NCBI RefSeq assembly: GCF_056712565.1
Contig: NZ_CM160072.1
Length of the DNA stretch: 64,000 bases
Direction: 5' to 3' (one strand)
Below the pieces are notes generated by a model that had not been told where the DNA came from, did not search any database, and saw nothing but the letters and a program-made list of their open reading frames with translations. Below are positions 19,886-29,069 of the stretch, piece after piece. A program made the position numbers and the translations under genes. Position 1 is the stretch's first letter; every line of letters starts with the position of its first letter.

Positions 19886-20167
19886 TTGCTGCAAAGTCGC
19901 AATGATCATTTGCGCCAAACGGCATTGCACAACGCACATACCCCGGTGTTGTTGTTAACGACATTGACTGAGCCTCAGGAGCGGTCGCTGGCTATTAATA
20001 ATTCACAGCTGGCTGCCGATGTGAAAACGGCGTGGTTAAAAGAGGAGCCATCATTACTCTTATTTGTCGAACAACCCGATCTTTCGCTGTTACGTGATTT
20101 AGTGAAAACCGGGGCAACGCGAAAAATTCGCAGTGAAGCGCGTCACCGGCTTGAGGAAAAACAATGA
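19886..20167 (+). CDS. hypothetical protein, orphan ORF with TTG start (possibly a ykiA-like remnant)
   Basis: 93-codon ORF; frame open upstream to 19802 with no ATG; no clear SD; between ppnP terminator and a REP element. Confidence 0.3.
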   Translation: MLQSRNDHLRQTALHNAHTPVLLLTTLTEPQERSLAINNSQLAADVKTAWLKEEPSLLLFVEQPDLSLLRDLVKTGATRKIRSEARHRLEEKQ

Positions 20168-20271
20168 CACAACGCCCCTGGAGCAAGTTACAGCATAAAA
20201 CGCATAATATTGCTGCGCTAAGAATTATTGCCCGCTGTAGCTAACGATTATATTCCTGGTGTGGCTTTGTA

Positions 20272-23847: not shown

Positions 23848-26800
23848 TTATTTCATTGCAAACGCACTTTCCAGTTTGCTGTAGCCCAGTCCATTGATCT
23901 TCTTCACTTTGATCTGCACCGGAATACGCTCTTTCATCGCCTCAACGTGGCTAATCACCCCGATGGTTTTGCCACTGGCATTCAGGGCATCCAACGCATC
24001 AAGGGCGGTATCCAGCGTTTCGCTATCCAGTGTGCCAAAACCTTCATCAAGGAACAGCGAGTCAATACGCGTTTTATGGCTGACCAGATCTGAAAGCGCC
24101 AGTGCCAGCGCCAGACTGACGAGGAAACTTTCGCCGCCGGAAAGGGTACGGGTATCGCGTACCGCATCAGCCTGCCAGGTATCAACAACCTCAACTTCCA
24201 GCGCTTCGCTGGCTTTGCGCTGTAACAGATAGCGCCCGTGTAGCCGGGTGAGTTGCTGATTAGCGAGATGGACTAAATTATCCAGCGTCAGCCCTTGGGC
24301 AAACTTGCGGAATTTATCGCCCTCTTTGGAACCTATTAGCGAATTCAGATATCCCCAGTCCTCAACCTGCTGCGTCATTTGAGCAATTTGCTGCATTAAG
24401 GTTTGTTGTTGCTGACGGTTATCTGCATCCTGCTTCAGCTGCTGGCGAATCTCGCCTTGACTCGTGGTGTTTTCACGCAACTTTTGGTGAGTTTGCGCTA
24501 ACTCTTGCTGAATCTGCTCCACCGTCACAGTGAGAGACAACCCGCCAGGTCGGTGTTGCTGATGCTGTGTCAGCGTTTCTGCTGTCTGAGTGACCAGCGT
24601 TTGCGCCTGACGGCGCTGGTTTTCCAGATTCTGCTTGAGCTGTTCCAGCTGCGTTAGTGTTTGTTCATCCATTAGCGCCGCAAGGAACGCCTGCTGATCG
24701 TCAAAGACGCTCGCCTGTAGCGCGGTGTCAAACTGCGCCTGGGCTTTTTGCAGACTTTGCGCCGCCAGAACATCCTGTTGCTGTAACGTCTGCTGCTGGC
24801 TGTGTAATGCGAGACATTGTTCATGAACCTGCCGCCAGTTTTCCAGCGCCACAGTTTCTTCGCTGTGCGGGAGTTCATCACTTTGCGGCAACGTTTCCAG
24901 AATCGGCGTCAGTTGCTGAATACGGTTTTGCAGCGCGGTTAATTCGTTCTGGCGATGCTGCCAGCTCTGCGCTTCTTGCTGACGCGTCGCCAACCAGCTC
25001 TCTTCTTCATCTTCCTGTGGCAATGTCAGTGCATAACCCGCCAATGCCGTTAAGAGCTGCTGCTGGCGTTGTTCAATTTGCTGTTGATACTGGATAATTT
25101 GCTGATTATGCGCGGCAATCTGCCCTTGTAATTCATGCCGTTGGCTGAGTAACCGCAGCTGGCGTTCGTGCTCATCTTGTGCATCTAGCCACGGTTGAAT
25201 ATCGTCCTGTGGCTGCAAGGTGATATTGAGGCTGGCCGTGACGGCTTGCCATTGTTGAGTAAGTGCTTGCTCATCTTGTCGGAGGCTTTGCGCTTCGTTT
25301 TCATCACGCTGAAGTTGCTTTGTTAAGGCGTCCAGTTGCCCACGTAGCGTCGCACCTTCTTCGCCGAGCTTTTTCACTTCTTTTTCCAGCGTTAATAGCC
25401 GGGCCTGATTAACGCCCGGTTCCAGCGCCTGATACGCCTCGACCGCCGGGTGGCTGGTGGAACCACAAAGTGGACAAGGCTGACCCGCTTGTAACTGCGC
25501 GCGCTGGGCTTCCAGCGTTTTAATGCGAGTTTCCTGCTCGCAAATGGTTTTCACATCGGCAAGTTGTTGCGTTTTTTCTTTATAACGATGGCGCATTTCG
25601 TTAAGTGCGGCATTACGTTGCGTCTGTTCCAGAGTGACATTCTGGATAGCGACCTGTAACTGCGCCAGACGTTTTTGTTGGGGAACAATCTGCCCATGCA
25701 GTGCGACCAGGCGCTGACGCAGTGGGCGTTGCTCAGCATGTTGCGCCAGGGCGCTAGCAACTTCATCGGCGGTTAACGTCAACGTGATCGCCGCAAGTGC
25801 ATTAAGTTTTTGCTCAGCATGAGTTAACTGTTGCTGCCATTGCCGCAGATGCTCGCGATCGCTGGTTTGTTGGGAGAACTGCGCACGCCAACCCGCCAGT
25901 TCGTTGTTCCACTGACGTAAGCGGTCGTGTTCCTGTAACCAGGCATTCAGGCTTTGTTGCTGCTGCTGTAATTCTGCTGACTGCTTCGCCGCGTGGTGGC
26001 GAATGCTCGCACGAAGCGCCATTGTGCTCTGTAAGCGAGTATTTACTTCTTCAATCTGCTGGCGAGTATGCGCCAGCGCCGTGCTGTATTCTGCGATGCG
26101 TTCCCAGTGCGGACGAAGATTTCGTGCCGGTTGTGCCAGACTGAGCGCCGCCAGTTGAGGTTGCGCTTTTTCTTCTTCGGCTAACGCCTGTTGCAAGGCC
26201 TGTTGACGGCGGCTGCCTTCTTGCTGCAATTCGTCCAGACGCGTTAACCAGTTTAGCGATTGTTGTTCTTGCTGCTGCGCGGTAATTAACTGTTTTTCTT
26301 CGTCAGTAAGTACCTGCAAACTCGCTGTCAGCGATTGCACTTGTTCTGGCGTGAGCAACGCGACGCCGCTGGCCTGCGCTTGCAGCTTCTCCAGCTCTGT
26401 GCGGGCCGATTTGTGCTGCTCAAAAACCATCGCCGAGATTTGCCCGTAGATTTCAGTGCCGGTTAACTCCTCGAGCAATTCTGCGCGTTCTTTGGGTTTG
26501 GCATTCAGGAAGGCAGCAAATTGCCCCTGCGAAAGCAGCATCGAACGGGTGAAGCGCCCGTAATCCAGTCCGGTTAACGTCGCCGTCAGTTCCAGCTTAT
26601 CTTTCACTTTGTCGGCGAGAATTTTGCCGTCTGCACAGCGCGCCAGCTCTACGCGTGGCACCTGCAAATTACCGTCCGGCTGGTTACGCGCCCGATTCTG
26701 GCTCCAGAACGCGCGATACGCTTCACCTTTGACTTCAAACTCCACTTCCGCCAGACATTCGGCGGTATCGCGGGTCATGAGATCATTTTGCGATTGTGAA

Positions 26801-26991
26801 ACGTTAGAGAGGCGCGGGGTTTCGTGATACAGCGCCAGACAAATGGCGTCCAGCAGGGTGGTTTTCCCCGCACCGGTTGGGCCGGTAATAGCAAACAGCC
26901 CGTTGCTGGCGAACGGCTCGCGGGTGAAATCAATCTTCCATTCGCCTTTTAATGAGTTCAGGTTTTTCAGGCGCAGGCTGAGAATTTTCAT
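23848..26991 (-). CDS. sbcC: exonuclease SbcC (SMC-like ATPase of SbcCD)
   Basis: 1047 aa; N-terminal Walker [10 protein letters not shown], long Gln-rich coiled coil, zinc hook CPLCG, C-terminal signature LSGGE plus Walker B. Confidence 0.95.
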
Positions 26992-28190
26992 GCTTCGTGT
27001 TCTCCGGCGAGGCTATGCAACGTCGTGGCGAAAAGATGCTGCAGACGTTGCTGCTGTGATTCATCCAGTTCTTCCAGTGCCAGACGGCGATTGAACACCT
27101 CTTCGACGCTGAGTTCGCTGAGGGTTTCACGCTGTTGGCTGGCTAACACACGCTCGCGCTGTTCACGACTCCGGCGTACCAGCAATACTTCGACAGGCAA
27201 TGATTCGGTTAATGCCTGGATTTTGCGCTGAATATCATGCAGATACTCATCAGTAGTGATTTCGATATCCAGCCAGACAGGCGGCTCCTGTGATATATCG
27301 CGCCACTGTTCCAGCTGTGCGGTAATCGACGCCAGATCGCCTTTCAGCACCGCCATGGGTTGCGTTACCGGTACGTTCAGGTTTTCCACGCTCTCTAATT
27401 TGCCGTTTGAAAATGTCACCAGATGGACATATTTACTCTTACCGCATTCATCAAAACTCAGTGGTATGGGGGAACCGCAATAGCGAACATGTTCCATGCC
27501 GCCAATAATCTGCGCGCGGTGAATATGCCCGAGCGCGATGTAGTCGGCTGGTGGAAAGTTTTGTGCCGGAAACGCGTCCAGCGTGCCAATATAAATGTCA
27601 CGCACGGCGTCACTTTTACTGGCACCCACGGTCGTTAAATGTCCAGTGGTGATGATGGGCAGAGGCTGAGCGCCGCGCAGTTTGCAGGCATCGGCATAAT
27701 GTTGTTGATAATAATCAGTAATAGCCGCCAGCAAATGCTGCTGTTTTTCAATACCGTTAAGCCCCGCCTGGCTGGTAATAATGTCACGCGGGCGTAAAAA
27801 AGGTATGGGACACAGCACCGCGCCTGGCGTCCCGTCGCGACGGGGCAATATTTGCGGCGCATGTCCGGCGCTGGCGACCACGGTAGTATTGAGGAACGCC
27901 ATGATATCGCGCGATTCATTCAGCGTGGCGACCGAGTCATGGTTTCCTGCCAGTACCACCAGATGACAGCCAGTTTGCTGTAAATTGACAACAAAACGGT
28001 TGTATAACGTGCGGGCGTAACTGGGCGGCGAGCCGGTATCGAAAACATCACCGGCAACAATAATCGCATCCACCTGATGGGCTTGTGCTGTCTCCAGCAG
28101 CCAGTCAAGAAAAGCCTGATGTTCGGCTTCGCGGCTTTTACTGTAGAAGTTCTGGCCGAGATGCCAGTCTGAGGTGTGAAGGATGCGCAT
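26988..28190 (-). CDS. sbcD: exonuclease SbcD (Mre11-type phosphoesterase)
   Basis: Start at 28190 gives [24 protein letters not shown]...; metallophosphatase motifs DxH, GDVFD, GNHD; stop overlaps sbcC start (ATGA). Confidence 0.95.
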
Positions 28191-28297
28191 AACGGTTCCC
28201 TGGCGAAAAAGCATGGGCGCGATTATACCCAAACAGATGTGCCATTTGCTTTTTTCTGCGCCACGGAAATCAATAACCTGAAGATATGTGCGACGAG

Positions 28298-28341
28298 CTT
28301 TTCATAAATCTGTCATAAATCTGACGCATAATGACGTCGCA
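28298..28341 (+). promoter_or_regulatory. Pho box region of the phoB promoter
   Basis: CTTTTCATAAATCTGTCATAAATCTGACGCATAATGACGTCGCA: tandem TGTCAT-type repeats spaced ~11 bp. Confidence 0.75.
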
Positions 28342-28379
28342 TTAATGATCGCAACCTATTTATTACAACAGGGCAAATC

Positions 28380-29069
28380 ATGGCGAGACGTATTCTGGTC
28401 GTAGAAGATGAAGCTCCAATTCGCGAAATGGTCTGCTTCGTGCTCGAACAAAATGGCTTTCAGCCGGTCGAAGCGGAAGATTATGACAGTGCTGTGAATC
28501 AACTGAATGAACCCTGGCCGGATTTAATTCTCCTTGACTGGATGTTACCTGGCGGCTCCGGTATCCAGTTCATCAAACACCTCAAGCGCGAGTCGATGAC
28601 CCGGGATATTCCAGTGGTGATGTTGACCGCCAGAGGGGAAGAAGAAGATCGCGTGCGCGGCCTTGAAACCGGTGCGGATGACTATATCACCAAGCCGTTT
28701 TCTCCGAAGGAGCTGGTGGCGCGAATCAAAGCGGTAATGCGCCGTATTTCGCCAATGGCGGTGGAAGAGGTGATCGAGATGCAGGGGCTAAGTCTGGACC
28801 CGACATCTCACCGGGTGATGGCGGGCGAAGAACCGCTGGAGATGGGGCCGACAGAATTTAAACTGCTGCACTTTTTTATGACGCATCCTGAGCGCGTGTA
28901 CAGTCGCGAGCAACTGTTAAATCACGTATGGGGAACCAACGTGTATGTGGAAGATCGTACGGTCGATGTCCACATTCGTCGCCTGCGTAAAGCACTGGAG
29001 CCCGGCGGGCATGACCGCATGGTGCAGACCGTGCGCGGTACAGGGTATCGTTTTTCAACCCGCTTTTAA
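28380..29069 (+). CDS. phoB: phosphate regulon response regulator PhoB
   Basis: 229 aa; receiver domain ([28 protein letters not shown]) and OmpR-type winged helix. Confidence 0.97.

Follow-up and report, generated by a model that had tools for sequence, protein, structure and literature searches.

The window analysed here, a stretch of 64,000 nucleotides from contig NZ_CM160072.1 (RefSeq assembly GCF_056712565.1), carries the sbcD and sbcC genes beside the divergently oriented phoB gene. Both sbcC and sbcD are located on the minus strand, a point that the original prediction for this locus had left unstated. The coordinates of the genes, of their junction and of the promoter elements between sbcD and phoB are given in Table 1. 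The start codons of sbcD and phoB had been predicted to lie about 190 bp apart, and this agrees with the ATG codons found at 28190 (sbcD) and 28380 (phoB), which leave an intergenic spacer of 189 bp. This length equals the median spacer of 11 divergent gene pairs in the region.

Table 1. Features of the sbcC-sbcD-phoB region in window coordinates
Feature	Position	Strand	Basis or remark
sbcC CDS, 1047 aa, Rad50-like ATPase subunit	23848..26991	-	ORF, equivalog, motifs, PDB matches
ATGA: sbcC start ATG (26991 to 26989) over sbcD stop TGA (26990 to 26988)	26988..26991	-	sequence, RefSeq
Shine-Dalgarno-like GGAG for sbcC	27002..27005	-	within last sbcD codons, 10 nt 5' of ATG
sbcD CDS, 400 aa, Mre11-like nuclease subunit	26988..28190	-	ORF, equivalog, Pfam, PDB matches
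sbcDC transcription start	28214	-	Kim 2012
sbcD -10 hexamer TATAAT (perfect), poor -35	28222..28227	-	sequence, conservation
Pho box of phoB promoter, TTTTCATAAATCTGTCATAAATC	28299..28321	+	85-107 bp upstream of sbcD start site
phoB -10 hexamer CATAAT	28327..28332	+	sequence, conservation
phoB transcription start	28339	+	Kim 2012, Cappable-seq
phoB CDS, 229 aa	28380..29069	+	ORF, RefSeq

Positions 26700-28500 of the window show 100% identity to the E. coli ATCC 11775 chromosome, and the RefSeq annotation of that strain gives the same sbcD/sbcC boundaries and 4-bp overlap, with phoB and phoR oriented divergently. Matches of at least 95% identity to this segment occur in 5424 of the 5426 complete E. 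coli genomes. The junction region was likewise found in 5424 of these 5426 genomes, and the annotated 4-bp sbcD/sbcC overlap is kept even in the most divergent match examined. The sbcDC operon of E. coli K-12 (b0398-b0397; MG1655 RefSeq coordinates sbcC 412607..415753, sbcD 415750..416952, phoB 417142) has the same gene order, the same ATGA overlap and the same spacer length of 189 bp. Its sbcD-phoB spacer is 100% identical to that of the window, the surroundings of the junction contain two differences in 84 nt and the junction itself none; data obtained with K-12 are therefore directly applicable to the window. K-12 SbcC is 1048 aa in length compared to 1047 aa here, one codon being missing in the window near residue 816, and there are scattered substitutions.

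SbcCD is a nuclease acting on hairpins and DNA ends and is homologous to Mre11-Rad50. The sbcD product is a full-length match to NCBIfam equivalog NF008206 (637 bits, cut-off 450), possesses the Pfam domains Metallophos and SbcD_C, and matches chain A of PDB entry 6S6V end to end over residues 1-400. Its metal-binding residues (D8, H10, D48, N83, H84, H184, H222 and H224) were invariant when 60 diverse homologues were aligned. SbcC was identified by equivalog NF007600 (1924 bits, cut-off 750), and its residues 1-1047 are matched end to end by E. coli SbcC in the PDB. The protein possesses a Walker A motif (GPTGAGKT, residues 37-44), a zinc hook (CPLC, residues 506-509) and a Walker B motif (DEGF, at residue 982), along with a long coiled coil. 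The PDB entries of SbcCD that match these proteins have two chains of each subunit, a 2:2 SbcC:SbcD arrangement. The gene names originally given to this region were correct, those of sbcC and sbcD by these equivalog, Pfam and PDB matches and that of phoB by RefSeq.

At the junction, an ORF of 400 codons closed by TGA (SbcD) meets one of 1047 codons opened by ATG (SbcC) at a shared ATGA, which reads TCAT on the plus strand. The overlap of the sbcD stop codon with the sbcC start codon, as originally predicted, was confirmed both in the sequence and in the RefSeq annotation. It is real, already annotated and catalogued, and ordinary; Huber et al. (2023) entered the E. coli sbcD/sbcC pair as "-4, CMPLX yes". 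Overlaps of 4 bp are commonplace as such. Of the 40 co-directional neighbour pairs in the reference annotation over the window, eight overlap, and in three the overlap is 4 bp (tauD/tauC, among these three, falls just outside the window itself owing to an IS insertion). At approximately 20160-20240, another 4-bp overlap is annotated where a hypothetical gene of 81 nt meets a truncated DUF2773 pseudogene (EAS44_RS18710/RS18715); decayed genes can thus acquire ATGA overlaps as well. A plus-strand ORF of 83 aa (26843..27094) that spans the sbcD/sbcC junction was rejected as a mechanical ORF lying within two well-supported genes.

Transcription start sites published for K-12 by Kim et al. (2012) were located in the window through their flanking sequences. 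The start of sbcD at 416200 (-) of NC_000913.2 (29 reads, 24-nt leader) corresponds to window position 28214 and that of phoB at 416325 (+) (18 reads, 41-nt leader) to position 28339. Independently of that study, the phoB start was identified at 416325 (+) in the plus-strand rows of Cappable-seq data (score 43). Alignment of 12 Enterobacterales spacers showed only two conserved islands, one consisting of the Pho box and the phoB -10 hexamer and the other, TATA(A/C)TC, located approximately 30 nt 5' of sbcD. The sbcD promoter was missed by a consensus promoter scan because its -35 element is poor.

It had been proposed that the sbcDC promoter and the Pho-box promoter share a compact control region, with start-site mapping of both divergent promoters as the means of checking it. 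Such mapping is already published in the above data and bears the proposal out in part: both promoters do lie within the one 189-bp spacer. However, their starts (28214 on the minus and 28339 on the plus strand) are 125 bp apart, each promoter has its own -10 hexamer, and no bidirectional promoter with a shared core was found; sbcD RNA was also unchanged in a phoB deletion by RNA-seq, as described below. The arrangement is like that of E. coli back-to-back divergent promoter pairs, in which separate core promoters occupy one spacer, and the 125 bp between the starts distinguishes it from bidirectional promoters that overlap or share elements. The phoB promoter is a separate unit standing back to back with that of sbcD, with the spacer but not the core elements in common. 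A terminator-like hairpin at 28231-28214, overlapping the sbcD -10 hexamer, is at chance level (ten such hairpins found, 7.1 expected), the sbcD leader RNA folds no better than shuffled sequences, and an Rfam search of the window returned nothing. A weak plus-strand start was also observed by Cappable-seq at 28237 (U00096.2 416223, score 8.1), 23 bp from the sbcD start and around the same TATAAT/ATTATA. It could be due to a bidirectional -10, or represent a phoB transcript independent of PhoB whose leader of 143 nt runs through the Pho box.

The sbcD-sbcC junction was surveyed across many phyla using 60 aligned SbcD proteins of diverse origin and 80 fetched loci (one genome per species), 69 of which were resolved; ten of the 80, having no SbcC N-terminus just downstream, were left out as unresolved. 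A distance of -4 nt is the mode among the resolved loci, occurring at 36 of 69 (33 with ATGA, two with GTGA and one with TTGA), and is conserved well beyond sequence similarity. Distances of 0 to +15 nt were found at 17 loci, longer spacers at seven, overlaps of -10 to -14 nt at five and a distance of -1 nt at four, giving 33 of 69 loci with no -4 overlap. Over 861 SbcD->SbcC pairs, the median distance according to Huber et al. (2023) is -3.4 nt. A Shine-Dalgarno (SD)-like motif is present 3-13 nt 5' of sbcC at 30 of the 36 overlap loci, compared to an expectation of 7.6 derived from the remainder of sbcD (p ~3e-15, a value that is overstated, the loci being related). SbcD->SbcC (COG0420->COG0419) and Mre11-Rad50 operons have the nuclease gene first and the ATPase gene second at a distance of about -4 nt, as here, whereas pairs in many lineages differ from this one in having distances of -1, +11 or longer spacers. 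In phage T4 the gene order is the opposite, with gene 46 preceding gene 47.

Congeners can also differ at this junction: Photorhabdus cinerea (L012) has an 89-nt spacer following a TAA stop codon, whereas P. caribbeanensis (L013) has the ATGA overlap, showing that the operon can persist where the overlap is lost. No recognisable SbcC N-terminus was seen within 900 nt 3' of SbcD at loci L040, L051, L056, L057, L062, L067, L068 and L073, nor at L053 and L070; SbcD homologues without a nearby SbcC N-terminus include those of Pseudomonas sp. NCCP-436 and Nitrosomonas eutropha. SbcD->YhaN (COG4717) has been described as the second frequent partner pair (Huber et al. 2023), and such a pairing may account for some of these loci.

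Judged from architecture only, translational coupling of some kind between sbcD and sbcC is plausible, and we place its probability at about 0.65. The pair shows the features of the coupled class, namely co-directional genes on one transcript (the main start 5' of sbcD having 29 reads and the sole internal start two), a -4 overlap and, within the upstream gene, an SD motif. One mRNA beginning at 28214 carries both genes and, according to this model, a ribosome ending SbcD synthesis would halt atop the sbcC start codon. The halted ribosome would promote initiation at sbcC and so scale its translation to that of sbcD, and the outcome would be SbcC and SbcD in near-equimolar amounts for the 2:2 nuclease, at the very low expression of this operon. 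Four of five native E. coli ATGA pairs were found to be strictly coupled by Huber et al. (2019; PMC6728339), even in short constructs. Those four (hyfHI, astDB, ydbH/ynbE as well as menDH) are, like sbcDC, co-directional with an AUGA overlap and an SD sequence in the upstream gene; sbcDC was not among the pairs tested in that study, and bioBF, which has the same architecture, was uncoupled. Gene pairs at short distance are 4.5-fold enriched for heteromeric complexes, and sbcDC encodes a complex of this class. No published coupling experiment on sbcDC was found in the literature, and the supplement of Mori (2021) makes no mention of sbcC or sbcD.

It is possible, though in our view rather unlikely, that the overlap has no coupling function and that free 30S subunits start sbcC de novo at its GGAG and AUG, with the ATGA as a compact, mutationally easy arrangement kept by drift. 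The surroundings of the sbcC start are locally open and unstructured: their opening energy of 5.96 kcal/mol ranks eighth among 56 genes of the window (median approximately 9; the ranking covers the correctly mapped genes and excludes three at the window's left end that were mis-mapped through the IS insertion), and the junction RNA folds no better than shuffled sequences (z = -0.34), with no special structure. Sequestration of the sbcC ribosome-binding site in a stable structure was thus not seen in the local 120 nt assessed. As this region is easily opened, unmasking by upstream ribosomes would be unnecessary and free 30S subunits could bind. De novo initiation also predicts an SD motif, and the motif is both present here and enriched among the overlap loci. 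A genome-wide argument in its favour was made by Saito et al. (2020), who described that depletion of the recycling factor leaves the ratio of downstream to upstream ribosome density unchanged for overlapping pairs, and one of the five E. coli ATGA pairs tested by Huber et al. (2019), bioBF, points the same way. So does the survey, in which nearly half of the loci lack the -4 overlap and close relatives differ; yet the same survey gives -4 as the mode for sbcD-sbcC across phyla, which argues for coupling, as do the four strictly coupled pairs, short constructs included. Evidence on the mechanism at overlapping pairs in E. coli as a whole is divided.

Both of these readings take the sbcC start as annotated. 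Were sbcC to start downstream, or from an internal promoter of its own, the overlap would be an annotation artefact, which is extremely improbable. The original prediction named a downstream alternative start as what would refute the overlap; none occurs before codon 72, the first alternative ATG, GTG or TTG, and the overlap stands. Codon 72 is past the Walker A motif, which a start there would remove from SbcC, and on the other side the frame is closed by an in-frame stop eight codons 5' of the ATG. The N-terminus M[KR]IL..R.KN.NSL is kept in the 69 loci from many phyla, the first 15 residues being conserved across them, and 36 residues stand before the glycine of Walker A at nearly all 69 loci (35 or 38 at a few). 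The AAA_23 domain of Pfam matches from residue 5 onwards, the active recombinant SbcC of the solved structures begins with MKILSLRL, and the solved SbcCD structures follow the same protein boundaries; all of this fits the annotated start. What favours a separate sbcC transcript is a minus-strand start site within sbcD (415507 (-) of NC_000913.2, window position 27521; Kim et al. 2012), located 530 nt 5' of sbcC. It has two reads, however, compared to 29 for the sbcD start, which is at noise level, and probably reflects noise, not a promoter of sbcC. A downstream start or an internal promoter is thereby effectively refuted, and the annotated sbcC start is secure as far as sequence evidence allows.

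Co-regulation of sbcDC with phoBR, in which PhoB bound at a shared Pho box would repress or modulate the sbcD promoter during phosphate starvation, is doubtful. A PhoB ChIP peak lies within the spacer in two studies, RegulonDB has sbcC and sbcD entered as PhoB targets, and Yang (2012) described a mild effect on sbcD between wild type and a phoB knockout (log2 -0.64 on the array, with a reporter difference). This effect is at odds with later RNA-seq in low phosphate, in which sbcD RNA was 274 in the wild type and 271 in the phoB deletion while phoB RNA was 32,731 and 34, respectively. Choudhary (2020) found the expression change unsubstantiated and filed sbcC and sbcD under 'hypothetically functional binding'. 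The position of the Pho box, outside the sbcD core promoter (Table 1), also speaks against such control, as does the restriction of sbcD-phoB adjacency to ten Enterobacterales loci among the 80 surveyed (spacers of 177-304 bp). In the RNA-seq data, PhoB bound to the Pho box has no measurable effect on sbcD RNA. Within the phoB CDS, at 28482-28499, ChIP-seq gave a second site for PhoB (minus strand, ATTCACAGCACTGTCATA), which Fitzgerald (2023) places among intragenic, apparently inert sites.

The transcription start at 28214 is also the A of an in-frame ATG (28212-28214, minus strand) located eight codons 5' of the annotated sbcD ATG, and the 5' end of the sbcDC mRNA would read 5'-AUGCUUUUUCGCCAGGGAACCGUUAUG. 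Leaderless translation in Escherichia in addition to the annotated mode, yielding SbcD extended by MLFRQGTV, with the ATGA passing initiation on to sbcC, is conceivable but quite improbable. Among the Enterobacterales aligned, E. coli and E. albertii have this ATG and the others lack it. As the sbcD start itself it was rejected, being found only in Escherichia, and in the homologue alignment the N-terminus of the family fits the annotated start. The TTG at 28232 given as start in the ORF list was also rejected as it lies 5' of the mapped transcription start. If true, the leaderless mode would make SbcCD output dependent on conditions favouring it, such as stress or stationary phase. The sbcDC operon is reportedly dependent on starvation and RpoS.

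The sbcDC operon is already known; it belongs, with nothing out of the ordinary, to the numerous -4 overlapping pairs coding for subunits of a complex. Its junction can be regarded as a textbook-style case of two subunits of one machine that would be kept in step; the overlap has been annotated and entered as a -4 pair before, and it fits the 2:2 complex of the structures. Dependence of sbcC on sbcD translation, whichever way it is decided, would not change the understanding of translation or of DNA repair.

An IS3-family (IS2-like) element of 1331 bp was identified at positions 1971-3301 of the window. It is absent from this position in ATCC 11775, which is otherwise 99.988% identical. Its flanks suggest a 5-bp duplication. 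As a result of this insertion the window begins inside hemB and not in tauD/tauC.
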